Counted from the stretch's first letter, positions 7,450-49,091 are shown. The stretch is DNA of 64,000 nucleotides from Parcubacteria bacterium C7867-005 (GCA_001189165.1 LFCO01000001.1:84321-148320), one strand, 5' to 3'. Numbers and translations: made by a program. Notes: generated by a model not told the origin, from the letters alone.

Positions 7450-7496
7450 ACGGATGGTTCTCTGACATTCAATCCAAACAAAGCGGAGGCACAGTT

Positions 7497-9105: not shown

Positions 9106-10311
9106 ATGTATCAAAAAAGATCTTTTGGGCGTAGCCCAAGTACGAGAGGCCATAGACCATACCAAGGGCGCCCACCGATGAGGAGGAGTGCTGGTGGTTT
9201 CCGTGGTCAGAAACTCGACATCAATAGTTTTATAAACAAAGCGGTTATCGTAGAAGAATTCGATCACTTCGTTCCTGAACACGCATTCAGTGACTTTGTC
9301 ATAGAGGGAAAGCTCAAGAAAAACATCGCAGCCAAAGGTTACGTCGCTCCAACCTCTATCCAAGACAGGACGATACCTCACATCCTTAAGGGCCAAGATG
9401 TTGTCGGTATAGCCAATACAGGTACAGGCAAGACAGCAGCATTCCTCATCCCTTTAGTGGACAAGATGATGAAGAATCCAGATGGATCTGTACTCATCGT
9501 CGTACCTACAAGAGAGCTCGCTACACAGATAAATGATGAGCTAAAAGGCTTTGCTCCAGGCACAGGACTTTTCTCTGTTGTTTGTGTTGGTGGTACACCA
9601 ATGGGGAACCAGCTCAAGGAACTCCGATATAAAAACCATTTCATCATTGGCACGCCCGGTAGATTGAAAGACCTCATAGAGAGGCGCGCATTGGATTTAT
9701 CCAAAACGTCTTCAGTTGTATTAGACGAAGCGGACAGAATGCTCGATATGGGTTTTATGCCCGACATGAAATTCATTATGGCCAAAATGCCAAGTGAAAG
9801 ACATACACTTTTCTTCTCAGCGACTATGTCCAAAGAGATAGAAAAGTTAATACATGAATTCTTAAACGAGCCAGTATCTATTTCAGTAAAAACTCAAGAT
9901 ACATCAAAAAATGTTGATCAGGATATCGTCCGCATGAGAGCGGGGGAAGACAAAATCCTAGCACTCGAAGAATTACTCAAAAAAGAAGATTTCAACAAGG
10001 TACTTATCTTTGGTCGTACTAAACATGGCGTAGAGAGGTTGGCCAAAACACTATCAGTCAGAGGTTTTGCCGCAGACTCTATCCATGGAGACAAGAGCCA
10101 GGGCCAGAGACAAAGAGCTCTAAATGCTTTTAAGGAAAACAAACTCAAGATCTTGGTTGCTACTGACGTAGCTGCCAGAGGACTCGACATCCCACTCGTA
10201 TCTCATGTGATCAATTTTGACATTCCTGCGACGTACGAAGACTACATTCACCGCATTGGCCGTACAGGTAGAGCCGGTGCAGTAGGCAAGGCCCTTACTT
10301 TCGTAGAATAA
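9106..10311 (+). CDS. DEAD-box ATP-dependent RNA helicase
   Basis: Q-motif, ANTGTGKTAAF, PTRELA, VLDEADRMLDMGF, SAT and HRIGRTGRAG motifs. Confidence 0.9.
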   Translation: MYQKRSFGRSPSTRGHRPYQGRPPMRRSAGGFRGQKLDINSFINKAVIVEEFDHFVPEHAFSDFVIEGKLKKNIAAKGYVAPTSIQDRTIPHILKGQDVVGIANTGTGKTAAFLIPLVDKMMKNPDGSVLIVVPTRELATQINDELKGFAPGTGLFSVVCVGGTPMGNQLKELRYKNHFIIGTPGRLKDLIERRALDLSKTSSVVLDEADRMLDMGFMPDMKFIMAKMPSERHTLFFSATMSKEIEKLIHEFLNEPVSISVKTQDTSKNVDQDIVRMRAGEDKILALEELLKKEDFNKVLIFGRTKHGVERLAKTLSVRGFAADSIHGDKSQGQRQRALNAFKENKLKILVATDVAARGLDIPLVSHVINFDIPATYEDYIHRIGRTGRAGAVGKALTFVE

Positions 10312-10313
10312 CA

Positions 10314-10793
10314 ATGAGGAAAACTCTTCTGACTATTGTTGTTTTGTTTCTGGTTATCTTATTTTGGCTTTTTTTGCGTAAACCAGAAAAAATAGATCTG
10401 AATATTAGTCCAGATCAACAAGGAGAGGTCCCTACTACCACCTCAACAGGATTTACCTTGAGTCAGAATTCTATAGTAGTAGATTTGCCCAAAACGAATT
10501 CTACAACCACCTCTCCAATCAATCTTTCGGGCAAGGCTCGTGGAAATTGGTTTTTCGAAGCCAGCGCTCCGGTCCAAGTTGTGGATGATAAGGGCAATGT
10601 CCTCGGCCAGAGTCATGTAGAAGCGACGGGTGACTGGATGACTACAGAATTCGTGCCCTTTACTGGTAGTGTTGTTTATAAAAATCCAACAGGCACCACG
10701 ACCAAGGGGTTTGTCGTTTTTTCGAACGACAATCCATCCGGTGATCCAGAGAGAAGTGTTTCAGTCAAAATCCCTATAAATTTCAAGAGATAG
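10314..10793 (+). CDS. secreted Gmad2-like Ig-fold protein
   Basis: N-terminal TM/signal. C-terminal NWFFEASAPVQVVDDKGNVLGQSHVEATGDWMTTEFVPFTGSV resembles the Gmad2 domain. Confidence 0.4.
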   Translation: MRKTLLTIVVLFLVILFWLFLRKPEKIDLNISPDQQGEVPTTTSTGFTLSQNSIVVDLPKTNSTTTSPINLSGKARGNWFFEASAPVQVVDDKGNVLGQSHVEATGDWMTTEFVPFTGSVVYKNPTGTTTKGFVVFSNDNPSGDPERSVSVKIPINFKR

Positions 10794-10801
10794 ACTTAGG
10801 T

Positions 10802-11521
10802 TTATTGTTCTCTACCTCGGTCAGGCTGAAATGGAAGACTGTTCCTCACAGGAACTTTTCTGATTATTTCTAGTATCTCATCATGGTCATCTGTGATCGT
10901 GTATAGGGATAGATCCGGTTCGCTGATGGTTTCTCTGGAGAGCAAGGTTTCTTTCAAAAAGTTTTCTACATTTCTCCAATAATCTCCTCCAACGCAGATG
11001 ATGGGCACACCCTCGATTTTTTTTGTCTGGATGAGAGTCATGATCTCAAAAAATTCGTCCAAGGTACCGAACCCTCCAGGAAAGAAAACAAAAGCTTCTG
11101 CAGAGAAAGAGAGCATCACCTTACGCACGAAGAAATAATAGTGATCAACCTGTTTAGTGATGTATTTATTAATCGTCTGTTCGCTAGGGAGTTTGATCGT
11201 CACACCGAGTGATGTTCCACCAACTTCGAAGGCACCTCTGTTTGCGGCTTCCATAATCCCTGGACCTCCGCCAGATGCTACTGCGTAGTTGAGTTCTTTG
11301 GCTATACGCCCAGCGAGAGTTCGTGCACTTTGATAGTAAGGGTTATCTTCCTTGAATTGATTTGATCCGAAAAAAGTTACTGATTTAGGGTTATCTTCGA
11401 GGAACCTGAATCCCTCAACAAATTCTTTGGTTATTTCAGACACTCGGTCTAGGGCTACCTCCTGAACTTCTTTTGGGGTTAGGGTTAGCGTGTTTTTATC
11501 TGTATTCATGCGCAATATCAT
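10802..11521 (-). CDS. LOG-family (TIGR00730) Rossmann-fold nucleotide-binding protein
   Basis: [19 protein letters not shown] and [12 protein letters not shown] motifs. Confidence 0.75.
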
Positions 11522-11588
11522 ACCATACGGGGATAGCGAACTAGCTACATTTTGTGTGCGAGTTATACTAAAAAGGAATAAAAAATAT

Positions 11589-12065
11589 ATGAAACACTTA
11601 AATCGAAATCAATGGATCGGTGTCGCCGCTGGCCTGGGCTTTGTTGGGTACCTCTTTTATGGAGGAGCTTTTGTTAATCTTTTTAATCAAAACAATCCAT
11701 CCATGCAAAACGATTCTATGTCTCTAAAAACGGGTGTACAAGTTAGTGATGTGGTTGTGGGGAATGGAGACGCAGCTCTAGCTGGAGACGTCATAACCGT
11801 TCACTATGTTGGTTCACTTACAGACGGCAAGGTCTTTGACAGTTCTCTGGACAGGAAGCAACCCATCACCTTTACTCTCGGTGTTGGACAGGTTATCCGC
11901 GGATGGGACGAGGGTGTCGCAGGTATGAGAGTTGGAGGCAGGCGCAAGCTACTCATTGCCCCTGACTATGGTTATGGAGAGAACGGTATCGGCCCAATAC
12001 CTCCAAGTTCTACCCTTATTTTTGAAGTCGAATTACTAAAGATTGAGAAGCCAGTAGCCAGATAG
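11589..12065 (+). CDS. FKBP-type peptidyl-prolyl cis-trans isomerase (secreted/membrane-anchored)
   Basis: [59 protein letters not shown]. Start chosen at 11589 to avoid overlap with the LOG gene; the ORF track starts at 11490. Confidence 0.75.
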
Positions 12066-12078
12066 CATTCATGTATAT

Positions 12079-12708
12079 ATGGAGATAGATACAAACAATC
12101 TCCACCATGCGTATCTTCTAGAAGGGGAGATCTCTCTCGGTAATAAATATCTAGATTCTCTTTTCTTGCGTCTGGGTATCGATACGGTGCAAAATCCTGA
12201 TAGGCATGTTTTCAACAGCGGGGTATTCACAGTGGATGAGGCGCGTGGCTTGATTGAACGTGCGCAAAGCAAATCGTTTGGTGAAAGATCCGTCTTTATC
12301 ATATCTTCACCACACTTGACTAAAGAAGCTCAGAACGCACTACTCAAAACCCTCGAAGAGCCTCAACCGAACAAACACTTTTTTCTTCTTGCTTCTAATC
12401 GGGATCTGCTTCTGCCCACGCTTCTCTCTAGGTTGATGATAGTGAGGATGGATAGAGGAGATTATTCTTCGAATCGGTCAGGAAATTTTCTTTCACTAAG
12501 TCCGAAAAACAGACTGGCTTTCGCCAAAGAATTTGCAGATAAAGAGGGTGATCTAGGATCTTTTCTGGACTCGCTTTTGGCCGATCTCAAAAAAGAAAAT
12601 AGAAGTAAGACTGATATAGACAAAGTTTTTAGTGTCCGCAGATTTGCTGATGATACGAGCGTTCAACCCCGCCTCATTTTGGAGCATCTTGCTTTGGTTT
12701 TGAAATAA
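12079..12708 (+). CDS. holB: DNA polymerase III delta-prime-like subunit
   Basis: HHAYLLEG and LLKTLEEP motifs; C-terminal LLSRL. Confidence 0.55.
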   Translation: MEIDTNNLHHAYLLEGEISLGNKYLDSLFLRLGIDTVQNPDRHVFNSGVFTVDEARGLIERAQSKSFGERSVFIISSPHLTKEAQNALLKTLEEPQPNKHFFLLASNRDLLLPTLLSRLMIVRMDRGDYSSNRSGNFLSLSPKNRLAFAKEFADKEGDLGSFLDSLLADLKKENRSKTDIDKVFSVRRFADDTSVQPRLILEHLALVLK

Positions 12709-22018: not shown

Positions 22019-22672
22019 ATGCGTTTGTTCGTGCGTTTCCTCTGCCTCGTCATGCTGATGTGCATGGTCGAGAAGAACGTGCTCGCCCAGGAGAACCCGC
22101 GGGCCATGGAACTCAAGTCGATCACCGTCGGCTCCGGCCGCGACGCGATCGCGAGCGGGATCGTCGGCACCGCGATCTTCAATTCGCGGGATGGCAAGCT
22201 GTACGGTGACTTCACCGTCCAGGCACAGCAGTCCTGGCTCACGATGGGTAGGAACTTCGGCACGAAGACCAAGGCGACCATCGGTGGCACCATCGGATAC
22301 TTCCAGGGTGCACCATTCGTCGGCCCGTATGTCTTCGTCACTCGACCGATCGCACCCAAGATCTCCAAGATCTCGGTTAGCGGTCTCTACTGGCCAGCCG
22401 TCTTCGCATGGGAGCCGAGCGAATGGAAGAACGACGGGGTGAAGAACCCCGAGCCCCTCGCCATCGGCAACTTCGGCATGGTGTCGATCGGTACGGACAG
22501 GGTGAGACTCACTTACGCCCTGCTCGACTTCATGGATGACCCGTTCAATCGACTCCCGGGGATCTCGATCTCGGCGCCGTACGCAAAGAAGATGGTCTTC
22601 AATGCGAACGCGACCTGGAATACGGTCGGTGAGGAATGGATGTTCTACATGGGGATGACCTGGTCCCGCTAG
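22019..22672 (+). CDS. signal-peptide-bearing beta-strand-rich protein resembling an outer-membrane beta-barrel (high GC)
   Basis: Signal MRLFVRFLCLVMLMCMVEKNVLA and an alternating hydrophobic pattern. GC about 60%. Confidence 0.35.
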   Translation: MRLFVRFLCLVMLMCMVEKNVLAQENPRAMELKSITVGSGRDAIASGIVGTAIFNSRDGKLYGDFTVQAQQSWLTMGRNFGTKTKATIGGTIGYFQGAPFVGPYVFVTRPIAPKISKISVSGLYWPAVFAWEPSEWKNDGVKNPEPLAIGNFGMVSIGTDRVRLTYALLDFMDDPFNRLPGISISAPYAKKMVFNANATWNTVGEEWMFYMGMTWSR

Positions 22673-26189: not shown

Positions 26190-27481
26190 TCAAAGATATC
26201 CTCAAACGCACAGTCATACATCTCCTACAAAAACAGGCCAAGTTTGTTCTAAGGAAATACAACCCCAAAATTGTGGCTATCACTGGTACCGTAGGCAAAA
26301 CCAGCACCAAAGATTCACTTTACACCGCATTATCCAGGTTCTATTTCGTAAGGGCGAGTCAGAAGAGTTTTAACAATGATTTTGGTATTCCTCTTACTAT
26401 CCTGAATTTACCAACAGCAGGAAGCGATATGCTTGGTTGGGCGAGGAACTTACTCGAAGGTCTATCACTTATGATCATGCCCAGCCATTATCCAGAGTGG
26501 CTTATTCTCGAAGTGGGGACTGATAGACCGGGGGACATAGCCGCAGTTACTTCGTGGATCAAACCCGACGTGGTGATTGTGACCAAACTTTCCAAAGTAC
26601 CAGTGCATGTAGAATTCTTTGGTTCACCAGAAGATATTTTTGAAGAAAAAGGTAATTTGATTAGAGCACTGAAGATGGGAGGAATCCTCGTCCTCAATGC
26701 AGATGATGAAGATGTTCTTTCCTATAAAAATTTATCTGATGAGAGGGTTGTCTCGTTTGGGCAGAAAGAGGGTGCAGACATCACAGCGAGTGACTATGAA
26801 GTTCTTTATGATGAAGAGAATCAGCCCAAGGGTATAACATTCAATGTCTTGAATAAAGAAGAAATCCACCCAGTTTACCTAGCTGGCACCGTCGGGGCGC
26901 ATCATGTTTATCATGTATTATCGGCTTTTGCTGTTTGTTTTGCTTTGGGTGAACACCTTTCTATCGCTGCCAAGGCTTTCAAAAATCATGAACCCACTCC
27001 AGGCAGAATGCGTTTATTGCCAGGCATCAAAGAGAGTACTGTCGTCGATGATTCATATAACTCATCACCGGTGGCCGTCGAGGAAGCATTGAAATCTCTT
27101 TCTACAATAAAAAAATCTAAACGAAATATAGTTGTGCTGGGCGACATGCTCGAACTCGGGAGATATTCCATAGATGAACACAAGAAAGCCGGCGCACTGG
27201 CATCCAAGGTAGCAGACATATTGGTCACCGTGGGGATCAGGTCGAGGTACATCGCTGAATCTGCCTTGAACGAAGGCATGGATGAATCAAAAGTACTCCA
27301 GTTTGATGGATCCGAAGAAGCGGGTTCATATATTCAAAATATTATAAAGAAAGGGGATTTGGTTTTGGTTAAGGGCTCCCAGGGTGTCCGTATGGAACGT
27401 GTCGTAGAAGAGATCATGGCTCATCCAGAAGATAAAGAACATTTACTAGTTAGACAAGAGGAAGAATGGAGAAATCGGTGA
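26186..27481 (+). CDS. murF: UDP-MurNAc-tripeptide--D-Ala-D-Ala ligase
   Basis: ITGTVGKTSTKD P-loop and Mur ligase middle and C-terminal domains. Confidence 0.85.
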   Translation: MIKDILKRTVIHLLQKQAKFVLRKYNPKIVAITGTVGKTSTKDSLYTALSRFYFVRASQKSFNNDFGIPLTILNLPTAGSDMLGWARNLLEGLSLMIMPSHYPEWLILEVGTDRPGDIAAVTSWIKPDVVIVTKLSKVPVHVEFFGSPEDIFEEKGNLIRALKMGGILVLNADDEDVLSYKNLSDERVVSFGQKEGADITASDYEVLYDEENQPKGITFNVLNKEEIHPVYLAGTVGAHHVYHVLSAFAVCFALGEHLSIAAKAFKNHEPTPGRMRLLPGIKESTVVDDSYNSSPVAVEEALKSLSTIKKSKRNIVVLGDMLELGRYSIDEHKKAGALASKVADILVTVGIRSRYIAESALNEGMDESKVLQFDGSEEAGSYIQNIIKKGDLVLVKGSQGVRMERVVEEIMAHPEDKEHLLVRQEEEWRNR

Positions 27482-27550
27482 CCCTACAGAGAATCGAACT
27501 CTGATTTGATCCTTGAGAAGGATCCGTCCTAACCGTTAGACGATAGGGCC
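27479..27550 (-). tRNA. tRNA-Glu (anticodon CTC)
   Basis: Minus-strand 72-nt cloverleaf: GGCCCTA / GTCT-AACGGTTA-GGAC / GATCC-TTCTCAA-GGATC / CAGAG-TTCGATT-CTCTG / TAGGGTC-A. The D-arm and acceptor resemble bacterial tRNA-Glu. CCA is not encoded. Confidence 0.85.
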
Positions 27551-27629
27551 ATAAACGTAGAAAGAATAGCCGAAATAAGCCCATTTTTCAACCCCAGCCA
27601 CCACAGTTCCCAGAAGTCCATCAGCCAGC

Positions 27630-27691
27630 CCCGTGTCAACCTGCCAGGTTGACACGGGCATCACCACACGCGAGTGTGGTGATTTTGTTTT
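27630..27691 (+). repeat. tandem hairpins: palindromic element cccGTGTCAACCTGCCAGGTTGACACggg plus terminator atcaccacac-gcgag-tgtggtgat-TTTGTTTT
   Basis: Perfect 12-bp stem at 27630-27658. The core recurs at 40067-40102. The second hairpin at 27660-27683 has a T-tract. Confidence 0.6.
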
Positions 27692-27707
27692 GTGATAGTA
27701 TTTCTAT

Positions 27708-28076
27708 ATGAAAAAGTGTTTGTCTATTTTGATATTTTTACTTGTGCTAATCGTTGGCTGTTTCTTTTTGATTGTCTCGAATGACAACATGGTTTCTGCG
27801 CCAGAAGAAAACGAACTATCAACAACGATTTCCTCGAATGTTAATCCATCCGGTAGAATTATGTTCATCGACGATTACATCAAACAGAATATTTCTGAAC
27901 TTTCTCCGGAGAAAGAAGTGCTCGGAGGCAAATTCTATGTTACAGAGATATCTTCAGGTGATGGTATGGGCACAGTGTCATACGAAGACGGTCATGTTTC
28001 TTATACTGCCGATTTTACCTATCTGACAAATGAGAACACTGGGCACACTGTTACCTCGTTTGTTTTAAGGAAATAG
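27708..28076 (+). CDS. small secreted lipoprotein (hypothetical)
   Basis: Signal peptide with LIVGC lipobox; 122 aa. Confidence 0.45.
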   Translation: MKKCLSILIFLLVLIVGCFFLIVSNDNMVSAPEENELSTTISSNVNPSGRIMFIDDYIKQNISELSPEKEVLGGKFYVTEISSGDGMGTVSYEDGHVSYTADFTYLTNENTGHTVTSFVLRK

Positions 28077-28139
28077 TCTAGTTTTTATTTATATTTGTTG
28101 TATAGTTCTTGTGGACACACCACACTGGTCGGAGGGACC

Positions 28140-28478
28140 ATGTCACGAAAGGGGGCGGTGCATCAGTACTATGTTCGTTCCTTGGATGAACATACGAGTA
28201 AGTCTGTATCGAGGAGTTTTCCCGACGCCGACTTTATCACCGAAGTGGCATGTGCTGGGGGCGAAAGCTTTCCCATGCACATGTGCAGTGAGGAAGTAGT
28301 CAAATTCCTTCGGAGAAGCAACAAGAAGAGCGGTGGTGACTACGGGTTCGAGGTCTATGTGCGTAGACGCCAGGGCGACAAGGTCGTCCACAAGCAGATC
28401 GAACCGGAGGTAAGGCAGAAACGAGCACTCAAGCGACAAGTGCTCAGCAGACTGAGGAGAATCACCGCCAAGAGCTAA
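28140..28478 (+). CDS. hypothetical basic protein (elevated GC)
   Basis: GGAGGG RBS before the ATG at 28140. Arg/Lys-rich C-terminus (RQKRALKRQVLSRLRRITAKS). The ORF track starts at 28095. Confidence 0.35.
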   Translation: MSRKGAVHQYYVRSLDEHTSKSVSRSFPDADFITEVACAGGESFPMHMCSEEVVKFLRRSNKKSGGDYGFEVYVRRRQGDKVVHKQIEPEVRQKRALKRQVLSRLRRITAKS

Positions 28479-28510
28479 TCTTGGCGGTCTTAATTTGATA
28501 CAATATCTAC

Positions 28511-28762
28511 ATGACTTTTGAACAGGCTATACATAAGGTCGTTAAAACTATTCCAAAAGGGAAGGTGTTGACCTATAAACAAGTAGCTCAAAAAGCTGGC
28601 AGACCAATGGCTTTTAGGGCGGTAGGGAACATTTTAAATAAAAACATTGATTCAAAGATTCCTTGCCATAGAGTAATTCGTTCAGATGGTAAGATCGGCG
28701 GGTACAATGGCCTTCAGGGACAGAAGAGAATGCTTTTGGTTGAAGAAGGATATTTGAAATAA
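28511..28762 (+). CDS. methylated-DNA--protein-cysteine methyltransferase, DNA-binding/active-site domain only
   Basis: 83 aa containing the IPCHRVIRSDGKIGGY active-site motif (PCHR). Confidence 0.7.
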   Translation: MTFEQAIHKVVKTIPKGKVLTYKQVAQKAGRPMAFRAVGNILNKNIDSKIPCHRVIRSDGKIGGYNGLQGQKRMLLVEEGYLK

Positions 28763-28765
28763 TTT

Positions 28766-29215
28766 ATGACATTCTCACAGGAAGATTATTTGCATGGTAT
28801 AACTGGTGAATTTCCTACAGAGGTTACTGAATTCAAACAGGAGTACGCAAAGATAAAACCTCCAGTGGACAAGGAGTTTCTGGCTGGCCTATGTGAAGGG
28901 GATGAGGATCTACAAACTGCATTCGAAGACATGATCGAATATTTCTATAGATATACAAGAGATGTCTGTACCCAAGAGAGTTTAAAGCATGCCGGGATTC
29001 AAGATAACCTTGAAGAGATACAAGCCATGGAAGTACCTAGAAGAGTGCTACACAATGCGATGATTGAATCAGTAAAAATTTTCGTCAGGAATTTAAGAAA
29101 AAAAGGTAAAGATGTGTCATGGGCCACAGATATTGACAAAAGGGGTAGAGCGGGTTATGCTCAATTAGCTCTTTTGACCACCTTCCGGGATATAATGAAG
29201 GCAAACCCCAACTAA
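28766..29215 (+). CDS. hypothetical protein
   Basis: 149-aa ORF with no recognised motif, tightly linked to the next ORF. Confidence 0.35.
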   Translation: MTFSQEDYLHGITGEFPTEVTEFKQEYAKIKPPVDKEFLAGLCEGDEDLQTAFEDMIEYFYRYTRDVCTQESLKHAGIQDNLEEIQAMEVPRRVLHNAMIESVKIFVRNLRKKGKDVSWATDIDKRGRAGYAQLALLTTFRDIMKANPN

Positions 29216-29216
29216 T

Positions 29217-29429
29217 ATGGGAGGACCTGAACAGATGCCACAAGATCGGTTTTCCCTTATCTTGCGTTATGCAAGTTTGGCGGCTCTCGAGATGACCGAA
29301 AAGGATCCTGCCAGGCTTGCAGAAATCGCCGATGACAAAAAGGTGATTGCAGACGGCTTGGGCATGGATGGTTCAGCTATCATCATGGAAGCGAGTAAGC
29401 TTGTCGCGGGTGGCAACGGTTCGCACTAA
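29217..29429 (+). CDS. hypothetical small protein
   Basis: 70-aa ORF starting 2 nt after the previous stop. Confidence 0.3.
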   Translation: MGGPEQMPQDRFSLILRYASLAALEMTEKDPARLAEIADDKKVIADGLGMDGSAIIMEASKLVAGGNGSH

Positions 29430-29473
29430 CAATCTCCCTTCTGGGAGATTTCTTTTGTTATACTATTCTGTAT

Positions 29474-32218
29474 ATGCAAAGTGAGAGGGGATCATTTAAT
29501 AATCCACACGAAGAGATCGAATACCTACGATCCAAAGTTCTAGAACAAGAACGTCGTTTTGATCGACTGGGTCAAAGTAAAGAAAGGGATGCAGTCATCA
29601 GAGAATTTATTCAGAATTTCCATAGAGAAGAATCGAAAAGCCTTTCTCAAACCACAGAAAGAGAATCAGAGCTTCACGCAGGGGATTTGCTCAAGAAAAA
29701 CGAGGATAAACAGCTCCATGAGATGATGCATATCACGGAGACTAAGGGTGTCTTGCATGCTTTGACCGTAGTAGAAAAGATGAACGGCTGGTGCTTAGAG
29801 GATGATTTCCATGATTTTCTCGTGGGTTTGGTCAGAGAGGGCTTACCACCAAAAGGTGTCAAAGAAAAAGGCCCTCTTTATCGCGCGTTAAACATGACTC
29901 TTTTTGAGGTGGTGTTACCAGATAATTCGATTGGTACAGATCAAGCAAACCAAAACAAAGATTTAAAAACACTTATTTCTAGTATGGAACAGTTTTATGC
30001 CGGGATGCTCTCTGTCTCTGAAAAGGAGACTATGGGTAAAAACTATTTTGTATTAGAGATGGCGAACAGCAACGGTAGTGAAGAATTTATTTTTTATGCA
30101 TCTGTGCCCACAGAGAAAAAGATGTTATTCGAGAAACAGCTTTTATCTATTTTCCCCACAGCGCGTTTGATAGAGAGGCAAAAGGACTATAATATTTTCT
30201 CTGACGAGAGCTACTCGCTTGCTTCTGTGGCTGAGTTGTCCGCATCATCCGCTTTGCCGCTCAAAACATATGAATCATTTGACCACGATCCGCTTAATAC
30301 TATCCTGAACAGTTTCTCGAAGATTCCTAAGGATGGATCAGGCGCAGCAATACAGATAATCTTTAATCCAAAAGGGGATCAATATATAAAAAAATATCAA
30401 TATATTCAGAAACAGATAGAAAAAGGAGTGAAGCCCAAGGACGCATTGACCGAGAGGTCTATATTCGGGGACGTGATACACACACTTGGAGATCTGTTTG
30501 CTCCATCCAAAAAGAAAAAAGAAGAGGATAAAGTTAATCCAAACAACACAGAAGTGATAGATCGGATTAAAACAAAACTCCTCGCACCGACCGTATCAAC
30601 AAATATTCGTATAGCTGTTTCCAGTAACACTAAACCAGAAGCGGAGAGGATCCTCTCAGATATTGAATCAAGCTTCAATCAATTTGAAGTACCTGGAGTG
30701 AACAAAATCAAATTCAATAGAGTGAAGCCCAAAGCCTTTGCAAACTTCTTTAGAAATTTCTCATTTAGACTCTTTGCAAGCGAAGAAATTTTACCCTTGA
30801 ACCTCAAGGAGCTGACATCTGTATTTCACTTTCATACGACCGCCCTGCAGGGCAGAAGTGAGCTCAAACAGGTCAAGGCGGTTGGGGCACCAGCACCTAT
30901 CGGTCTGCCTACGTCGGGTACACTCCTCGGTATAAATCGTTTTAGTAATACAGAGACGAAGGTCTATATGACTCCAGAAGACCGTTTAAGGCACTTCTAC
31001 ACTATCGGACAGACAGGCACAGGTAAGTCGACGTTGTTAAAGAATATGATCATTCAGGACATCTTACGCGGAGACGGAGTTTGTATGATCGACCCACATG
31101 GAGTGGATATTGTCGATGTACTTGCAAATATCCCCAAGGAGAGGATGGATGATGTTGTTTATTTTGATCCAGCTTCAGTCGAGCGACCCATGGCACTCAA
31201 CATGCTTGAATACGATCGATCTAAGCCTGAACAGAAAACATTTGTGGTGAATGAACTCTTTAGTATTTTCCAAAAACTTTATGGTGCCGTACCTGAATCT
31301 CTTGGACCAATGTTCGAACAATACTTCAGAAATGCAACGATGCTGGTGATCGAAGATCCGTCATCCGGTTCAACTTTACTCGATGTATCAAGGGTGATGG
31401 TAAACAAAGAGTTTAGGCAGATGAAAATATCCAAATGCCAGAACCCAGTTGTAGTACAGTTCTGGAAAGATATCGCTGAAAAGGCAGGTGGTGAGGGTTC
31501 TCTGGCAAACATCGTACCCTACATCACTTCCAAGTTCGATGTGTTCTTGGCAAACGACATCATGCGTCCGATCATCGCCCAAGAAAAATCCTCTTTTGAT
31601 TTTAGAGACATCATGGATAACAAGAAAATCCTCCTGGTGAACCTGTCAAAAGGCAGGTTGGGAGAGCTCAATGCTAATCTGATTGGACTTATCCTCGTAG
31701 GTAAAATACTGATGGCCGCGCTTTCTCGTGCAGATTCGATGAATACAAATCTACCTCCGTTTTATTTGTACATAGATGAGTTCCAAAATGTCACCACGAA
31801 CTCTATCGCCACGATTCTCTCTGAGGCGCGCAAATATAAACTTTCACTCACCATGGCTCACCAATTCATCGCTCAGCTCGAAGAAGAAATCAAAGATGCA
31901 GTATTTGGAAACGTAGGGAGCATCGCATCATTCCGAGTTGGTGCAGATGATTCTGAATATTTGGAAAAACAATTCGCACCAACATTTGGAGCCAAGGATT
32001 TAAGGGATATAGACAATCGGAATGCTTATTTGAAAATGTTGGTTGACGGTCGCCCTACAAAACCATTTAGTATAGAGACCATCGCTACACCAGAAGGCAA
32101 TAGAGAACAGGTAGAATTATTGAAAAAGATTTCATTTGAAAAATACGGAGGAGATAGGGGGGTGATCGAAAAGGGGATAATGGATAGATACATAAAGCCT
32201 GCCCAACCTGCTGTATAG
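29474..32218 (+). CDS. large P-loop ATPase of the VirD4/TraD/TraG coupling-protein-like (DUF87) family with a ~480-aa N-terminal domain of unknown function and no TM segments
   Basis: Walker A GQTGTGKST, Walker B FYLYIDEFQN and a C-terminal LTMAHQ region resembling the TraD/TraG C-terminal domain. 914 aa. Confidence 0.55.
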   Translation: MQSERGSFNNPHEEIEYLRSKVLEQERRFDRLGQSKERDAVIREFIQNFHREESKSLSQTTERESELHAGDLLKKNEDKQLHEMMHITETKGVLHALTVVEKMNGWCLEDDFHDFLVGLVREGLPPKGVKEKGPLYRALNMTLFEVVLPDNSIGTDQANQNKDLKTLISSMEQFYAGMLSVSEKETMGKNYFVLEMANSNGSEEFIFYASVPTEKKMLFEKQLLSIFPTARLIERQKDYNIFSDESYSLASVAELSASSALPLKTYESFDHDPLNTILNSFSKIPKDGSGAAIQIIFNPKGDQYIKKYQYIQKQIEKGVKPKDALTERSIFGDVIHTLGDLFAPSKKKKEEDKVNPNNTEVIDRIKTKLLAPTVSTNIRIAVSSNTKPEAERILSDIESSFNQFEVPGVNKIKFNRVKPKAFANFFRNFSFRLFASEEILPLNLKELTSVFHFHTTALQGRSELKQVKAVGAPAPIGLPTSGTLLGINRFSNTETKVYMTPEDRLRHFYTIGQTGTGKSTLLKNMIIQDILRGDGVCMIDPHGVDIVDVLANIPKERMDDVVYFDPASVERPMALNMLEYDRSKPEQKTFVVNELFSIFQKLYGAVPESLGPMFEQYFRNATMLVIEDPSSGSTLLDVSRVMVNKEFRQMKISKCQNPVVVQFWKDIAEKAGGEGSLANIVPYITSKFDVFLANDIMRPIIAQEKSSFDFRDIMDNKKILLVNLSKGRLGELNANLIGLILVGKILMAALSRADSMNTNLPPFYLYIDEFQNVTTNSIATILSEARKYKLSLTMAHQFIAQLEEEIKDAVFGNVGSIASFRVGADDSEYLEKQFAPTFGAKDLRDIDNRNAYLKMLVDGRPTKPFSIETIATPEGNREQVELLKKISFEKYGGDRGVIEKGIMDRYIKPAQPAV

Positions 32219-32263
32219 AATAGAGACAATGATGGCCCCTCGCTTACGCTCGGGGCCACTGCA

Positions 32264-32659
32264 CTAGTCATCGTCTCCATCATCTGGATCCCAATGATCA
32301 AGAATTCCGCGCTCCCGGAGGGGAGATGAGATCATCGGTTGTACCTGAGCTGGCTCGGTGGGGGTAAAATTCTTGGCGTTTTTGCGCTCGAACAGTACCT
32401 CGCCGGTTGCTCCCTTTACAGCCAAACGATACTCTGGCGGAACCTCATTTTCTTGGATCACGCCGTTGAGGATGCCGTCGAAGTTGATGGAAGAGGGCTT
32501 CTTACTCCTCACTTCTTTGATTCTTTCCTCGACCAGATCAGCAAGCCTGTTGGCAAGGTGATCCATTTCATCCCTAGAAAGCTCCACGGTAGCTCTCCTG
32601 GTGGGTGATGGGGTGTACTTCTGGTTCCTAATGCTATCATAAAATAACACAAAAGTCAA
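32264..32659 (-). CDS. hypothetical protein with acidic C-terminus (elevated GC)
   Basis: 131 aa ending DHWDPDDGDDD. Convergent with the ATPase; a shared hairpin ggcccctcgcttacgctcggggcc lies at 32228-32251. Confidence 0.35.
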   Translation of the reverse strand: MTFVLFYDSIRNQKYTPSPTRRATVELSRDEMDHLANRLADLVEERIKEVRSKKPSSINFDGILNGVIQENEVPPEYRLAVKGATGEVLFERKNAKNFTPTEPAQVQPMISSPLRERGILDHWDPDDGDDD

Positions 32660-32698
32660 GCTTCATTTGGCTTTGTGGATAACTAAAAAAGTTTAAAA

Positions 32699-33151
32699 CT
32701 AGGAGAAAAGGGATTCTATGGCAACTTTCACGTCTCCACTGTCCGCTTTGCCCTTGAGATCTTTCATCACCGAACCCATGAACTGACCCATTTTGGATTT
32801 ATCTGTAGCACCTAGTTCTACTTGTTTGGCCTTAACGAAGGTGAGTATCTCTTCTTTGGACATTTGTGCAGGCAGGAGAGTCTCCAATATGGCGAGCTCT
32901 GCCTCCTCAGCATCAGCGAGGTCAGCGCGCCCACCCTTCTCGAATTGACCGATAGAGTCTTTTCTTTGTTTTACCCCCCTGCGGATGAGGTCGAGCGCCT
33001 CTTCATCTGGTAGTGGATCAGTGGGCTTGCGCTTCTTGGCCACGAGTTCGTTAGTAAAGGCTGTGATAAGACCACGGAGGACGTTTAATCTAACCACATC
33101 CTTGTCTCTCATGGCTTGTTTTATCTGCTCATGTATGTCGGTTTGTATCAT
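32699..33151 (-). CDS. GatB/YqeY-domain protein
   Basis: MIQTDIHEQIKQAMRDKDVVRLNVLRGL is the canonical YqeY N-terminus. Confidence 0.8.
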   Translation of the reverse strand: MIQTDIHEQIKQAMRDKDVVRLNVLRGLITAFTNELVAKKRKPTDPLPDEEALDLIRRGVKQRKDSIGQFEKGGRADLADAEEAELAILETLLPAQMSKEEILTFVKAKQVELGATDKSKMGQFMGSVMKDLKGKADSGDVKVAIESLFS

Positions 33152-33189: not shown

Positions 33190-34272
33190 ATGGAGGGACT
33201 TCCAATCATCATTATCCTCAGCATTATTATATTTCTCGTATTAAACGCGGGTGCGCTTTATTTTGTCTATAAGAAATTTTCATCAGGAATAAACAAATCA
33301 GAAGATTCAAAAGGTTTTGATCTACTACTCCAACAGATGAATGAACTCTCCAGGGTTGTGGATTATAAAATGGGGGAGACGAACAAGATGATGAATGAGT
33401 CAGTGCGTACTCAGTTTGGTGAATCGGCCAAGTTGATTCGAGAAGTGACCGAAGGTTTAACCAAGCTTGATGAGACAAACCGTCAGGTGGTTTCTTTTGC
33501 AGATCAGCTTCAATCCCTAGAAGACATTTTAAAGAACCCAAAACAGAGAGGGATACTCGGTGAATATTATCTAGAGACGCTTTTGAAGAACTGTATGCCC
33601 CCAGGGAGCTACCAGATGCAATATGAGTTAGGGATGAATGATGACGGCGCACGTCTGATCCCAGATGCGGTTGTGTTCGTGAAGGATAAAATCATCCCCA
33701 TAGATTCCAAGTTTTCACTAGAGAACTATAATCGCCTTGTAGAAGAAAAAGATCCGGTGCAGAAAGAAAGATTAGAAAAATTATTTGTTAGTGATTTGAA
33801 AAACAGGATTACTGAGACTTCAAAATATATACAACCGAGCAAGGGGACGATGGATTTTGCTTTCATGTTTATTCCCCATGAGGCGATCTACTATGACCTG
33901 ATTGTAAACAAGATAGGCGCCCTGCAAGAGGAGACAGAGAGTTTGGTGCAACGCGCTGCTTCAAAGTACAAAGTGATCATAGTTTCTCCTACATCTTTCC
34001 TCGCGTATCTTCAAACAGTTTTGCAGGGATTGAAAGCACTTCAGATAGAAGAAAAGGCTCAAGAGATTGTCAAAAGGGTAGAGGATCTCGGCAGGCATTT
34101 GAAAACATATGAAGAGTATTACACCAAACTAGGTAACACATTGGGTACCGCTGTTAACCACTATAACGGCGCAGGCAAGGAGCTCCTCAAGATAGACAAA
34201 GATGTCCTAAGGATAACGGGCACGGGGGTAGGCCTGGAGACAGTTACTGTAGAGAAACCCGCCCTGGAATAG
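33190..34272 (+). CDS. rmuC: DNA recombination protein RmuC
   Basis: N-terminal TM, long coiled coil and C-terminal DAVVFVKDKIIPIDSKF nuclease-like region. Confidence 0.6.
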   Translation: MEGLPIIIILSIIIFLVLNAGALYFVYKKFSSGINKSEDSKGFDLLLQQMNELSRVVDYKMGETNKMMNESVRTQFGESAKLIREVTEGLTKLDETNRQVVSFADQLQSLEDILKNPKQRGILGEYYLETLLKNCMPPGSYQMQYELGMNDDGARLIPDAVVFVKDKIIPIDSKFSLENYNRLVEEKDPVQKERLEKLFVSDLKNRITETSKYIQPSKGTMDFAFMFIPHEAIYYDLIVNKIGALQEETESLVQRAASKYKVIIVSPTSFLAYLQTVLQGLKALQIEEKAQEIVKRVEDLGRHLKTYEEYYTKLGNTLGTAVNHYNGAGKELLKIDKDVLRITGTGVGLETVTVEKPALE

Positions 34273-46783: not shown

Positions 46784-48058
46784 TTAATTCACTTCCCCCA
46801 TGAATGGTATACGGGATCTATTTTTAAAATTTGTTATTTCAACACTTTTTGTTTTTTGCTCCTTTTGGTCAAAAACATCATTTTGGCCCCCGGTCGACAT
46901 CATGCTTGATCCAAGCATCAACATACCCTTGCCATACCTCTTTTTGACCTTGTCGAAGGCCTTGAACACATCGTCCCATCTGTTTATTCGTTTAAATGAC
47001 CCGAACAGGTCATTTGAGACGTGGTCTGGATCAACTAATACAGATAAAGTAACCCCAGAGGCCCTATAAAAAAGATTTGGTTCGTAGATATGTTCAAAAG
47101 TCTTTTTAATTTCTTCCAAAACTAAAGACGGATTAGAAAGAGCATTCGTCAGAGGTATTTCTTGTCTATGGTATTTGAACTCAGCTGTTTTCAAAAAATA
47201 ATGTATTTTTTTGGATGCGACACCAGCCGTCCTTGCTCGCGTACACACTTCTTCAACATTCTTTGATAATTCTCCAAAGATAGTATTTCGGTTGGTGGTC
47301 TTTGGGAAAGTTCTAGTGCTTTGGATGCTTTGCTGTTCGTCTTCGTTTTTAGTGCTATGTAGTTTGTATACAGATGTACCACGCAGTTCATGCCAAGTTT
47401 CGAGTTGTGGTAAGGATAGATTATCTTTTACCCACTCCCCGCTCTTATTTATAAAATCAAGAGCTGTTCGTATGCCTAATCTTTGGATTTTTAGAGTGGT
47501 CTGTGGACCGATACCCCAAACCTTGCCTATAGGTAGGTCGTGCAGAAATGATTCTATGTTTATAAAGTTAATGATTGTTAAGCCGTTTGGTTTTTGGTGC
47601 TTGGAGGCAATTTTGGCTAATACTTTGGTAGGGGCAATACCTATGGAGAATGTTACCCCGAGCTCTTTTTCCAATGCTTGTTGTATTTCTTTGCCTGTAT
47701 TTATTGGATCTGTCGATAAGTTAGTTATATCTGCAAAGCATTCGTCCACAGAATACTCTTCTACTGACGCTGTGTACCGCCTGACTATCTCATACATTCT
47801 GTGTGCAAATATTTTGTAGTTTTTATAATTTGAATTTACAACTATTGCTTGCGGGTACAGTTTCTTGATTTGAAATACAGGCATGCCTCTAAAGATGCCG
47901 AGGGCTTTGGCTTCTGTGTTCATGGAAGTGGCTATACCCCTTTCCATGCCCGTAACCACAGGCTTCCCTCTCAAGCTTGGATTTAAAGAGATCTCACATG
48001 AAGCAAAAAATGAATCTCCATCTACGTGTAAAATAGTTTTCTGCATTCTTACTAGCAT
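46784..48058 (-). CDS. dinB: DNA polymerase IV (Y-family)
   Basis: ILHVDGDSFFASCE, SIGIAPTKVLAKIAS and the little-finger domain. Confidence 0.85.
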   Translation of the reverse strand: MLVRMQKTILHVDGDSFFASCEISLNPSLRGKPVVTGMERGIATSMNTEAKALGIFRGMPVFQIKKLYPQAIVVNSNYKNYKIFAHRMYEIVRRYTASVEEYSVDECFADITNLSTDPINTGKEIQQALEKELGVTFSIGIAPTKVLAKIASKHQKPNGLTIINFINIESFLHDLPIGKVWGIGPQTTLKIQRLGIRTALDFINKSGEWVKDNLSLPQLETWHELRGTSVYKLHSTKNEDEQQSIQSTRTFPKTTNRNTIFGELSKNVEEVCTRARTAGVASKKIHYFLKTAEFKYHRQEIPLTNALSNPSLVLEEIKKTFEHIYEPNLFYRASGVTLSVLVDPDHVSNDLFGSFKRINRWDDVFKAFDKVKKRYGKGMLMLGSSMMSTGGQNDVFDQKEQKTKSVEITNFKNRSRIPFMGEVN

Positions 48059-48082
48059 AGCATCCTCTGTTTTGTATTAAGA

Positions 48083-48104
48083 AAGCCACCCTTTCGGGTG
48101 GCTT
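48083..48104. terminator. hairpin aagccaccc-tttc-gggtggctt between dinB and high-GC gene set G
   Basis: Perfect 9-bp stem. Read on the minus strand it is followed by ttcttaatac. Confidence 0.5.
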
Positions 48105-48108
48105 GTGG

Positions 48109-48444
48109 TCAGAGCCTGCTGTATTCGACGTGCGCGAGGCTGAGCCGGAGCTGTATCAGGTTGCTCTTCATCCCGACGCCTCTCGCTGTCTTCTTGACCC
48201 ATGCCCCGATCTGCTGGTGCCGTTCAGCGAGGTCCTTGTTGTTCCGCCATTCTTGGAAATTGCCCGAGATGTCGATGAAGATGTCGAGTTCCCCACGGGC
48301 CGGAACCTCGATGAGAACCACGTTCTTCACCACCAGAGCCTCGATCACCGCGGTTCTGATTCCCCGCCGGAAACTCGCCATGAATCTCTTGACCTCGGCC
48401 CTCTCCTTGATCATCTCGTGGGTGTAGACCGTCACAAGCGGCAT
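48109..48444 (-). CDS. hypothetical protein, possibly tautomerase-superfamily-like (N-terminal Met-Pro); high GC
   Basis: The ORF extends to 48492. An internal start gives MPLVTVYTHEMIKERAEVKRF.., about 111 aa, beta-alpha-beta-like. The family assignment is speculative. Confidence 0.3.
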   Translation of the reverse strand: MPLVTVYTHEMIKERAEVKRFMASFRRGIRTAVIEALVVKNVVLIEVPARGELDIFIDISGNFQEWRNNKDLAERHQQIGAWVKKTARGVGMKSNLIQLRLSLAHVEYSRL

Positions 48445-48540
48445 GGAGCCCTCCTCATGGGTTTGGGGTGGTTTTGGTTCCGCCGACAACAATACTGTTT
48501 GTTTTGAATTTGGTCAATATCACTATTTTTATACTAAGAA

Positions 48541-48563
48541 AGCCGAATCACTTGGATTCGGCT
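48541..48563. terminator. hairpin agccgaatc-acttg-gattcggct plus TTTT
   Basis: Perfect 9-bp stem overlapping the stop of the zinc-ribbon micro-ORF. Confidence 0.5.
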
Positions 48564-48691
48564 TTTGGCTCTGGATGTTCGGGGGCCACGTAGCCACAAC
48601 TTCCGCACTCCAGCTTCTTCTCGTTCCAAGCCGGAGGTTTCTTGCCGCATTTCGGGCACTTCACTTCGGCCGGCGCATCATCCTCTTTCAA
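48548..48691 (-). CDS. unannotated 47-aa zinc-ribbon micro-protein (CPKCG..CGSCG), high GC
   Basis: Minus-strand TTG start with GGAGG 4 nt upstream, 19 nt after the stop of the upstream gene. Translation LKEDDAPAEVKCPKCGKKPPAWNEKKLECGSCGYVAPEHPEPKAESK. Below the 60-aa cutoff of the ORF track. Confidence 0.45.
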   Translation of the reverse strand: MKEDDAPAEVKCPKCGKKPPAWNEKKLECGSCGYVAPEHPEPKAESK

Positions 48692-48710
48692 GGGTCCTCC
48701 GCGAGTGGTG

Positions 48711-49091
48711 TCAGTACGGGTTCATGAACATGATGGCCAAATTGATGTCTCGAGAGTAATTCGGCACAGCATCAGTCCATGTCATCATCTTGCGAACCCA
48801 ACGGTTGGGTCCTTCCTTGCCGATGATGATGAAGTTCGGATTCGCCCACGACCTTCCTCGCTCATTGTGCCTCGCGGTTTTTTCCTCCGCGAACCTGATG
48901 AGCTTGCCGAGCTCTTCTTCGTTGTAGTCACCGGGGTCACCCACGATGGCGACGATGGATGACCACTCCGCATCTGACTTCGGCAGAGGCGCTTCGTGTC
49001 CAGCGAGGTTCTTCACATGGAAACGCCCGCAGGAATCCTTCGTGGCTCGCGGCAGCTTCTGTGCCGCTTCGAGCAAGGTCGCAAGTGTCAA
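48711..49091 (-). CDS. hypothetical protein (high GC), TTG start
   Basis: 126 aa; AGAGGA RBS 7 nt before the TTG. No recognised family. Confidence 0.4.
   Translation of the reverse strand: MTLATLLEAAQKLPRATKDSCGRFHVKNLAGHEAPLPKSDAEWSSIVAIVGDPGDYNEEELGKLIRFAEEKTARHNERGRSWANPNFIIIGKEGPNRWVRKMMTWTDAVPNYSRDINLAIMFMNPY

Follow-up and report, generated by a model that had tools for sequence, protein, structure and literature searches.

The 914-aa ATPase encoded close to tRNA-Glu in Parcubacteria bacterium C7867-005 is very probably the product of a core, vertically inherited gene of Parcubacteria (Paceibacteria), a four-part protein without a membrane anchor that is encoded in ordinary chromosome rather than in a mobile island or a new multi-gene system. 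When a proposed function as a translocase docked on a membrane partner is added, the explanation as a whole is given a probability of about 0.6. The ATPase belongs to the DUF8128 family, which is catalogued, uncharacterised and related to the motors of type IV secretion systems (T4SSs).

The analysis was performed on a 64-kb window, the whole stretch of DNA presented, and statements of absence from the genome refer to this window. The tRNA-Glu, the double hairpin and the open reading frames listed by an earlier, sequence-only reading were all found where it had placed them. The murF gene ends at 27481 and shares its last 5 nt with the tRNA-Glu on the opposite strand (anticodon CTC, 27477-27550, minus strand; identified by ARAGORN and as Rfam RF00005, 59.9 bits), and no other RNA family was detected in an Rfam scan at the gathering thresholds. 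Two adjoining hairpins follow, the first with a perfect 14-bp stem and a 1-nt loop (27630-27658) and the second with a 10-bp stem and then the T-run TTTTGTTTTG (27660-27683, plus strand, the pair extending to 27693), which makes the second terminator-like on the plus strand. The plus strand then encodes a putative lipoprotein of 122 aa (27708-28076), a basic ORF of 127 aa (28095-28478; pI 10.0, GC3 0.62), a single-domain MGMT of 83 aa (28511-28762; PF01035, TIGR00589), an acidic protein of 149 aa with a weak DUF3232 match (28766-29215), a protein of 70 aa (29217-29429) and the ATPase, which combines DUF8128 with a VirD4/TraG-type motor (29474-32218). An acidic ORF of 131 aa (32264-32659; pI 5.0, GC3 0.56) and YqeY (32699-33151) lie on the minus strand, followed by RmuC on the plus strand (33190-34272). 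Profile matches bore out the earlier placing of YqeY and RmuC after the block, and these two genes form a right-hand flank that is kept in the closest relatives.

The ATPase begins with a helical module (residues 1-130; 29474-29863, plus strand, as for all its parts), in which residues 31-90 are poorly conserved and conservation starts at residue 91. At one related locus (L091) this module is a gene of its own, encoding 141 aa directly upstream of an 840-aa ATPase (profile E 6e-8). The next part in the predicted structure is an alpha/beta domain (residues 131-455; 29864-30838), joined by a flexible linker to a RecA-like motor (residues 481-870; 30914-32083) that carries conserved Arg/Gln motifs. 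The motor contains Walker A (GQTGTGKST, residues 512-520; 31007-31033) and Walker B (FYLYIDEFQN, residues 763-772; 31760-31789), and between the two the model places an all-alpha insertion (residues 586-715; 31229-31618). The Walker motifs are invariant among 30 homologues, and conservation within the ATPase domain exceeds 80-90% in each block of 30 residues. The Walker motifs and the TraD/TraG-like region proposed earlier were confirmed, and in Pfam T4SS-DNA_transf (PF02534, 35.4 bits against a cut-off of 20.1), TraG-D_C (PF12696, 26.2 against 22) and, for residues 491-566 only, DUF87 (25.5 against 23.2) all exceed their cut-offs; a match to PF10412 is confined to residues 499-543. The absence of a transmembrane anchor was likewise upheld, with no hydrophobic segment in residues 1-480 and the highest 19-residue hydropathy of the protein (1.9) inside the ATPase core. 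The N-terminal domain, previously called uncharacterised, proved to be Pfam PF26449 (DUF8128), a catalogued family without an assigned function, which precomputed Pfam annotation lists for the identical protein P0001 and for all 120 best homologues. Among the papers searched, none uses the term "DUF8128".

The ATPase had been described as an orphan, yet its homologues number more than 1,631, and the best 120 among them are all about 900 aa long and 57-73% identical to it. Relatives were counted in no fewer than 547 species-level genomes (GTDB), and the N-terminal domain alone matches 856 clusters at 50% identity clustering. Gene neighbourhoods were compared across 78 related loci. The slot between MurF and YqeY-RmuC is the same in the closest relatives (L021, L004, L009, L013, L017, L093, L094 and L095), and L019 has the YqeY-RmuC side only; in other lineages the ATPase gene follows SecY-Adk-Map and precedes Ndk. 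The commonest neighbours are Ndk, Map, Adk and SecY, and none is common to the whole family. The ATPase diverges at about the rate of MurF, CysS and RmuC: identities to L021 are 73% for the ATPase, 62% for MurF, 64% for CysS, 74% for RmuC and 86% for DnaB. Since the gene is syntenic, since its identity tracks that of housekeeping genes and since it occurs in at least 547 genomes, it is regarded as core.

Homologues also occur on mobile elements. They include PHROG 5156 (E 5.5e-75, residues 153-907), gp156 of Bacillus phage G (structural match in BFVD, E 4e-44, 835 aligned columns), a 913-aa protein of phage JL and a 913-aa 'DUF87' protein of the B. subtilis plasmid CP120602.1, which is TM-less (E 1e-26, query residues 233-897) and whose gene lies upstream of TcpC/D/E-like genes. 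A further homologue of the full-length type stands beside the partition and replication genes of a plasmid-prophage. The CP120602.1 protein is not the pLS20 coupling protein, which has 786 aa and two TM segments. The phage and plasmid proteins share the same architecture of N-terminal domain and motor over their full length, but they are 20-24% identical to the ATPase, are without the CPR-type helical module (residues 1-130) and reside on mobile elements. Since the Bacillus phages have no T4SS, the family can work without one.

The predicted fold of the ATPase was compared with known structures. The model of the complete protein (pLDDT 78.7) can be aligned with TrwK/VirB4 over its whole length (E 3e-15), and the motor alone gives TM scores of 0.65 to TrwB, 0.68 to the VirB4 C-terminal domain 4ag6 and 0.5 to HerA. 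When the N-terminal domain was modelled separately, the best 13 PDB matches were all TrwK chains, with E down to 7e-7, and TrwB, HerA and FtsK were absent from the best 50. The VirB4-like fold of this domain comes from one AF2 model with a pLDDT of 67.6 and a Foldseek TM score of about 0.35. At the sequence level, hhalign of the family profile against TrwK matched the Walker A region only, and PDB searches with the single sequence and with the profile matched only the Walker A region of TrwB. The DUF8128 domain appears, as modelled, to resemble the N-terminal domain of VirB4/TrwK.

In the explanation preferred here, the ATPase, as a predicted soluble hexameric translocase, would assemble as a ring and transport either DNA or a protein-DNA substrate at the expense of ATP. 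Docking on a membrane partner whose gene lies elsewhere would be the task of the VirB4-like N-terminal domain. The likeliest partner would be the chromosomal MPF_FATA-like T4SS carried by nearly all Patescibacteria, although some lineages may use in its place a large variable membrane protein whose gene directly follows that of the ATPase. This combination of ring assembly, ATP-driven transport and docking is put forward tentatively, at somewhat below even odds. The ATPase gene is followed after 3-10 bp, in 13 of the 78 loci, by the start of a gene for a rapidly evolving protein (580-1,850 aa) whose central part contains Gly-rich hydrophobic segments, and in L090 a similar large protein is encoded upstream instead; tblastn with the giant downstream proteins gave no match in the window. 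As had been stated earlier for the genes nearby, no T4SS part, relaxase or integrase is present, and by precomputed Pfam annotation this is so for the whole window, nor do T4SS genes, relaxases or integrases occur beside the ATPase among the recurrent neighbours in the 78 related loci. PMC12102498 surveys 3,035 genomes of Patescibacteria, of which 2,918 contain VirD4-type homologues, 5,713 altogether; no more than 148 of these homologues lie near virB4, and the authors raise exaptation. The paper also places the Patescibacteria virB4 near dnaA/dnaN. The same text reports that in Southlakia the T4SS is essential and the t4cp homologue (of whichever N-terminal type) dispensable, which speaks against T4SS coupling, as do the lack of any T4SS gene beside the ATPase in the window and the 78 loci and the homologues in Bacillus phages without a T4SS. 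Docking in the manner of VirB4 has against it the moderate confidence of the model and a sequence profile that agrees at Walker A only.

A stand-alone housekeeping DNA translocase that works independently of any T4SS, for example in chromosome or plasmid segregation, in clearing DNA at division or in pulling in DNA acquired by competence, is an alternative that we consider unlikely. It is in keeping with the core-like conservation of the gene, with its unvarying placement next to housekeeping genes, be it in the dcw cluster, where the ribosomal superoperon ends, beside Ndk or beside RmuC/RecR/DnaB, with the match of the motor fold to HerA as well, and with the phage and plasmid-prophage homologues of the same two-domain architecture, which adjoin ParA/RepA-type genes. 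However, neither a conserved DNA-metabolism partner nor a NurA-like gene nor an FtsK gamma domain is found, FtsK_SpoIIIE falls below the Pfam cut-off (E 0.021), and the ComEC-dependent uptake of DNA is dispensable in Southlakia (PMC12857230). A large membrane protein directly downstream in several lineages and an N-terminal domain that, in the model, resembles the membrane-complex-docking domain of VirB4 also favour a docked translocase over an independent one. The sequence-only reading had proposed a soluble FtsK/HerA-like translocase used outside conjugation, for DNA uptake or defence. The first part stands, in that the protein is a TM-less member of the FtsK/HerA/VirB4/VirD4 superfamily and, since no conjugation partners are nearby, a non-conjugative role is reasonable; defence, for which there is only a partial match to mad8, does not.

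The small genes that precede the ATPase, and the one that follows it, are not parts of a common machine. All had been called orphans apart from the lipoprotein and the MGMT, and the description holds for the 127- and 131-aa ORFs and extends to the 122-aa one: none of the three has a homologue by iterated HMM search among the ORFs of at least 40 aa of the 78 related loci, and relaxed BLAST gave marginal positional matches only. The hydrophobic N-terminus of the 122-aa protein ends in a lipobox-like IVGC, with a maximum hydropathy of 3.32 at residue 5. For the 127-aa ORF the NCBI start at 28140 would leave 112 aa, a terminator-like hairpin (28464-28488) overlaps its end, and its marginal positional match is in L009 (25% identity, E 0.06). 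At the position of the 131-aa ORF the relatives have small minus-strand ORFs (105-143 aa), none detectably similar to it. The 83-aa protein, previously described as a truncated MGMT, is indeed the C-terminal DNA-binding and active-site domain of O6-alkylguanine-DNA alkyltransferase alone (PF01035, E 3.8e-28), and because it begins at the equivalent of human AGT residue 96 the N-terminal domain is absent. In the alignment to AGT residues 96-174 the cysteine of its PCHRV motif nonetheless matches the human catalytic cysteine, and L009 has an MGMT gene in the same slot.

Orphan status does not apply to the 149-aa and 70-aa genes, both of which have homologues preceding the ATPase gene in five other genomes. 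The 149-aa family comprises 24 clusters (23 besides that of the window), and in all six genomes examined (the window, L005, L009, L093, L094 and L095) a pair of genes for the 149-aa protein and a 58-81-aa protein precedes the ATPase gene by at most 1.3 kb and shares its orientation, the counterpart of the 70-aa gene accompanying the 149-aa gene every time. Such constancy raises the prospect of a three-gene unit, in which the 149-aa and 70-aa proteins of this subclade would act on the ATPase as adaptors or regulators. The trio is intact in L005 despite different flanks (DnaB and CysS), and for at least nine of the 23 other 149-aa clusters the longest contig has the same size as that of an ATPase homologue. 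Even so, the pair occurs in 24 clusters only, against more than 1,600 homologues of the ATPase; ClpP and another gene intervene between pair and ATPase in L095; a terminator-like hairpin (29431-29450) separates the 70-aa gene from the ATPase start in the window; and in so narrow a clade a shared gene order may reflect nothing more than synteny. A functional unit of this kind is thus judged improbable. The three ORFs without homologues are lineage-specific, and the 149-aa/70-aa pair accompanies the ATPase only within a single narrow subclade.

In the original view the block was a recently acquired accessory or defence island beside tRNA-Glu, in which the small genes would cooperate with the ATPase. 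The small genes between MurF and the ATPase do vary among close relatives, with ClpP occupying the gap in L021 and unrelated ORFs in L004, and the three ORFs without a homologue in related loci have a GC content above their surroundings. PADLOC returned a partial match to mad8 (ATPase residues 506-809, E 1.8e-12) besides weak HerA matches, and the closest plasmid-borne relative of the motor domain, from Bradyrhizobium, is set among CHAT/TPR genes. Against this, the ATPase is core-like and its synteny is largely kept in relatives, the GC content of the block (0.42-0.44) matches that of the window (about 0.43), and L009, in which the ATPase is only 59% identical, retains most of the block in the same order (MGMT, 149-aa, 70-aa, ATPase, YqeY, RmuC). 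As this order is kept in a more distant relative, the arrangement is old. A tRNA-linked genomic island was rejected on the same evidence together with the lack of an integrase in the window and of a repeat of the tRNA 3′ end: the 26-nt 3′ segment is present as a single copy in the window with up to three mismatches allowed, other repeats in the block are short pairs at chance level, and, since the tRNA-Glu is on the minus strand, the block faces its 5′ side. Assignment to the MADS or another defence class was rejected too, the mad8 match being partial, the partner genes absent and the block without any other notable PADLOC match. The island reading is largely refuted already and is assigned only a very small chance of being correct.

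Patescibacteria depend on host cells. Their T4SS lacks a relaxase and is essential in the one genetically tested species, and coupling-type ATPases are scattered on the chromosome. The outcome is mainly corrective, in that the block is ordinary chromosome with fast-changing small filler genes around a conserved ATPase, and this ATPase gene offers a clear case of the scattered coupling-type ATPase that is most conserved in Parcubacteria. Handles on its cargo and docking site are offered by the apparent VirB4-like N-terminal domain that replaces a membrane anchor, by the helical module that is a separate gene in some lineages and by the tight coupling, also in some lineages, to giant variable membrane proteins. 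A bolder and doubtful idea is that the DUF8128 ATPases might be a third lineage of T4SS-type motors, joining a VirB4-like docking domain to a VirD4-like coupling motor and recruited in Parcubacteria as a near-universal housekeeping translocase. If so, they would record the divergence of VirB4 and VirD4 and could supply the soluble coupling ATPase that the essential CPR T4SS, which has no relaxase, is missing, or work with lineage-specific giant surface proteins.

Among known systems, the ATPase falls outside FtsK/SpoIIIE and HerA. PF01580 reaches 14.7 bits against a cut-off of 24, in the Walker A region only, and the TM segment and gamma domain of FtsK are lacking, while the likeness to HerA is limited to the short DUF87 match and the TM score of 0.5, without a NurA-like neighbour. 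VirD4-type T4CPs (TrwB of R388, TraD, TraG; PF02534, PF12696, PF10412) share with it the RecA-like motor with both Walker motifs, and the ATPase model shows a candidate counterpart of their all-alpha insertion. They have an N-terminal TM anchor, however, where the ATPase has a soluble region of about 480 aa, and the ATPase differs further in its core-like position and conservation and in having no relaxase or T4SS genes nearby in the 64-kb window. VirB4 (TrwK of R388; 7o42, 7o43, 8rtd) has a soluble two-domain plan of 800-900 aa, an N-terminal alpha/beta domain and a C-terminal motor, which the ATPase appears, as modelled, to share, its predicted structure aligning with TrwK from end to end. 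In contrast to VirB4, the ATPase has no match to CagE_TrbE_VirB (PF03135), a match to AAA_10 below the cut-off (E 0.057) and no adjoining VirB3-like gene, and its gene lies away from dnaA/dnaN, where the available text of PMC12102498 places the Patescibacteria virB4. TraJ of pIP501 is likewise a coupling-type ATPase without a membrane anchor of its own; such an ATPase depends on a separate membrane partner, and anchoring by the small membrane protein TraI has been proposed (PMC12857230). The TraJ gene is part of a conjugation operon, next to those for its partner and a relaxase, whereas the ATPase has no adjacent partner. The ATPase fits the Patescibacteria T4CPs whose genes are distant from virB4, as described by Quinonero-Coronel et al. 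2025 (PMC12102498), whose scattering is already published; as that class is described in the available text, the ATPase shares its positive VirD4 profile, its distance from T4SS genes and its relaxase-less surroundings, and the present analysis adds to that text the domain architecture, DUF8128, the apparent VirB4-like N-terminal fold and the gene neighbourhoods.

Every gene that the sequence-only reading had listed in the block after tRNA-Glu was recovered in the window at the coordinates given. The tRNA-Glu(CTC) gene (27477-27550) is on the minus strand, so it is its 5′ end that the block faces. At the tRNA 3′ end, the murF stop codon region, on the opposite strand, overlaps it by 5 nt (27477-27481). 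Two hairpins follow the tRNA (27630-27658 and 27660-27683, the second with a T-run), then a 122-aa ORF whose hydrophobic N-terminus ends in a lipobox-like IVGC, a basic 127-aa ORF (28095-28478; pI 10.0), an 83-aa protein comprising only the C-terminal domain of O6-alkylguanine-DNA alkyltransferase with the PCHRV cysteine kept, a 149-aa ORF weakly matching DUF3232, and a 70-aa ORF (29217-29429). The 914-aa ATPase (29474-32218, plus strand), identical to P0001 (NCBI name "putative Type IV secretory pathway VirD4 component"), lies between this last ORF and an acidic 131-aa ORF (32264-32659, minus strand; pI 5.0), and YqeY and then RmuC form the right-hand end.

The ATPase, a P-loop motor of the VirB4/VirD4 clade, is conserved, intact and soluble, and its gene is inherited as part of the core. 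Far from being the orphan proposed earlier, it has more than 1,631 homologues in a search of 5.8 billion proteins, and the best 120 of these, all from Parcubacteria/Patescibacteria MAGs, are ∼900 aa long and 57-73% identical over 98-100% of the query. With one genome scanned per GTDB species, full-length relatives were found in at least 547 genomes, and residues 1-480 by themselves match 856 clusters at 50% identity. Because precomputed Pfam annotation assigns PF26449 (DUF8128) to the N-terminal half of the best 120 homologues, the ∼480-aa domain is already catalogued; the earlier description of it as uncharacterised stands in that it remains a DUF, and does not in the sense of unclassified. 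Across 30 aligned homologues, each 30-residue block of the motor domain is 80-96% conserved, with invariant Walker A (G512-T520), Walker B (F763-N772), R786/K787 and H796/Q797. Many MAG records titled "uncultured Candidatus Saccharibacteria bacterium" also carry the ATPase at 50-73% identity (loci L005, L017, L021, L025, L028, L031 and others). Synteny is of the Parcubacteria type in the three whose flanks were examined (L005, L017, L021), and the organism names are probably generic labels rather than real taxonomy.

AF2 models (full length, pLDDT 78.7; residues 1-495, pLDDT 67.6 and pTM 0.66) predict a helical module (residues 1-130), an alpha/beta domain (131-455), a disordered linker (456-480), a RecA-like motor (481-870) with an all-helical insertion (586-715), and two C-terminal helices. 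No TM segment is present anywhere in the protein, in agreement with the N-terminal anchor having been reported as lacking. The motor is VirD4-like in sequence, with T4SS-DNA_transf and TraG-D_C above their cut-offs, which bears out the proposed TraD/TraG-like region; the best NCBIfam match is SXT_TraD, and no VirB4 sequence signature was found with Pfam or NCBIfam. In Foldseek searches of the PDB, the full-length model aligned end to end with TrwK/VirB4 of R388 (about 900-930 columns, E 3e-15), and the motor alone matched TrwB (TM 0.65), the VirB4 C-terminal domain 4ag6 (TM 0.68), HerA, Cagbeta and DotL. The top 13 matches of the N-terminal model were all TrwK chains (E down to 7e-7, about 400 columns, TM 0.33-0.35), and no TrwB, HerA or FtsK chain appeared among its top 50. 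From these model-based matches we infer that the N-terminal half probably corresponds to the VirB4 N-terminal domain and not to a RecA fold.

The suggestion that the block is an accessory, variable multi-gene system found no support in its surroundings. The order dcw genes-MurF…ATPase…YqeY-RmuC-L21-RecR-DnaB is shared by the closest relatives (loci L021/L003, L004, L009, L013, L017, L093, L094 and L095), with only the YqeY-RmuC-RecR-DnaB side retained in L019. The ATPase identity to these relatives runs parallel to that of housekeeping genes, as in L021 (ATPase 73%, MurF 62%, CysS 64%, RmuC 74%, DnaB 86%). Locus L009, with only 59% ATPase identity, retains the order MGMT, 149-aa, 70-aa, ATPase, small ORF, YqeY, RmuC; the arrangement is therefore old, and it is eroded in some closer relatives. 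The 64-kb window lacks VirB4 and VirB6 as well as any relaxase or integrase, as had been noted for the neighbourhood of the ATPase, and it has no repeat of the tRNA-Glu 3′ segment, and the GC content of the block (0.42-0.44) equals the window average. The region is chromosome, not an island. When ORFs were called in 78 non-redundant related loci and neighbours were clustered, no neighbour was common to the whole ATPase family. The commonest were Ndk directly downstream (22 loci) and, upstream, Map (18), Adk (16) and SecY (13), a position where the ribosomal superoperon ends; MreB, DedA, Tgt and ribosomal proteins also recurred.

The small genes are more lineage-specific. Even iterated HMM searches detected no homologue of the 122-, 127- or 131-aa ORFs in any of the related loci. 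The 127- and 131-aa ORFs exceed their surroundings in GC (GC3 0.56-0.63 versus 0.40-0.47), and across the lineage-specific ORFs at 28095-28478, 29217-29429 and 32264-32659 GC3 is 0.52-0.63, compared with 0.40-0.47 in housekeeping genes. Patches of 0.53-0.60 GC also occur elsewhere in the window (5127-6431, 7443-8888, 22019-22672 and about 48000-49000; genome ∼0.43), those at 5-9 kb and 22-23 kb coinciding with ORFs lacking a Pfam match. Precomputed annotation further places a 112-aa protein with a SWIB/MDM2 domain (PF02201) at about 2571-2909 (plus strand; L085:2258-2596). In relatives a minus-strand ORF of 105-143 aa fills the ATPase-YqeY gap; these ORFs show little or no mutual similarity, and none resembles the 131-aa ORF. 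The family of the 149-aa protein is small (24 clusters), and in all five genomes examined (L005, L009, L093, L094, L095) its gene precedes a homologue (58-81 aa) of the 70-aa gene, both within 1.3 kb upstream of the ATPase. The trio is intact in L005 though the flanks differ. Against a strict operon, ClpP is interposed in L095, and the window has a terminator-like hairpin (29431-29450) between the 70-aa gene and the ATPase.

Within Parcubacteria the ATPase itself varies in architecture. Shorter forms of 815-840 aa are without residues 1-130. At L091 a 141-aa gene (9574-9999) ends 2 nt before such an ATPase (10001-12523), and its product matches the profile of the helical module (residues 1-140 of the 914-aa form; E 6e-8). 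The module can therefore stand apart as a unit of its own, and it exists both split and fused. L090 has a similar layout, with a small gene (9601-10008) abutting the ATPase, but its product did not match the module profile. In a Parcubacteria subclade that is more distant (about 50% ATPase identity), a low-complexity, fast-evolving protein of 580-1,850 aa begins 3-10 bp beyond the ATPase; 13 of the 78 loci show this (L048:6420-9056, L056:12714-14936, L064:12734-15127, L066:12739-15495, L068:12726-15848, L076:12715-15366, L078:5863-8721, L075:7824-12038 and others). In these proteins the N-terminus is a charged coiled coil, the centre contains Gly-rich hydrophobic segments and the C-terminus carries a recurring motif (…PH[IV]Y…G.L.V.GG), and they could be membrane or surface partners of the ATPase. 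A comparable 1,033-aa protein at L090 is upstream of the ATPase instead, and nothing similar was found in the window.

Relatives also occur on phages and plasmids. PHROG 5156 matches residues 153-907 (E 5.5e-75), and full-length structural homologues, about 22-24% identical to the query, are Bacillus phage G gp156 (825 aa, E 4e-44) and a phage JL protein (913 aa, E 1e-39). In plasmid-prophage 0105phi7-2 the homologue (gene 033, 847 aa, L092:6215-8758) adjoins ParA/RepA-type partition and RepB-primase genes; according to its depositors, HHpred matched the C-terminal domain to TrwK (7O43). The B. subtilis plasmid CP120602.1 encodes a 913-aa TM-less homologue (L087:7404-10145; aligned to query residues 233-897, E 1e-26) upstream of TcpC/TcpD/TcpE-like conjugation genes, with a 446-aa protein lacking a Pfam match between them (L087:10155-11495). 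This may be a Gram-positive conjugation module with such an ATPase as coupling protein; in PLSDB the plasmid is typed as non-mobilizable. Among plasmid-borne motors, those of Bradyrhizobium and Sulfitobacter are the closest (35% identity), and the 708-aa TM-less protein of Bradyrhizobium sp. 131 plasmid p131_1 (L086:7074-9200) has CHAT-domain and TPR proteins on its flanks, surroundings more reminiscent of defence or signalling than of conjugation.

We propose, with a probability of about 0.4, that the ATPase assembles into a ring and translocates a DNA, nucleoprotein or protein substrate, its VirB4-like N-terminal domain docking it on a membrane partner whose gene lies elsewhere, most plausibly the MPF_FATA-like chromosomal T4SS of Patescibacteria. 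That the protein is instead a T4SS-independent DNA translocase, as the phage homologues and housekeeping neighbourhoods favour, is the main rival and seems unlikely.

The gene typifies a family that Pfam already lists as a DUF, and VirD4-type homologues as a class are already in the literature, without characterisation there. One published survey reports 5,713 of them in 2,918 of 3,035 Patescibacteria genomes, only 148 near virB4 and with relaxases rare, and its authors suggest exaptation (PMC12102498). Added here are the core-gene status of the ATPase in Parcubacteria, its probable, model-based VirB4-like N-terminal domain, the occurrence of the N-terminal module both split and fused, and the lineage-specific companions. 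For the docking proposed here, TraJ of pIP501, a TM-less coupling protein whose proposed anchor is the separate small membrane protein TraI, provides a precedent for a TM-less coupling protein with a separate membrane anchor (PMC12857230).
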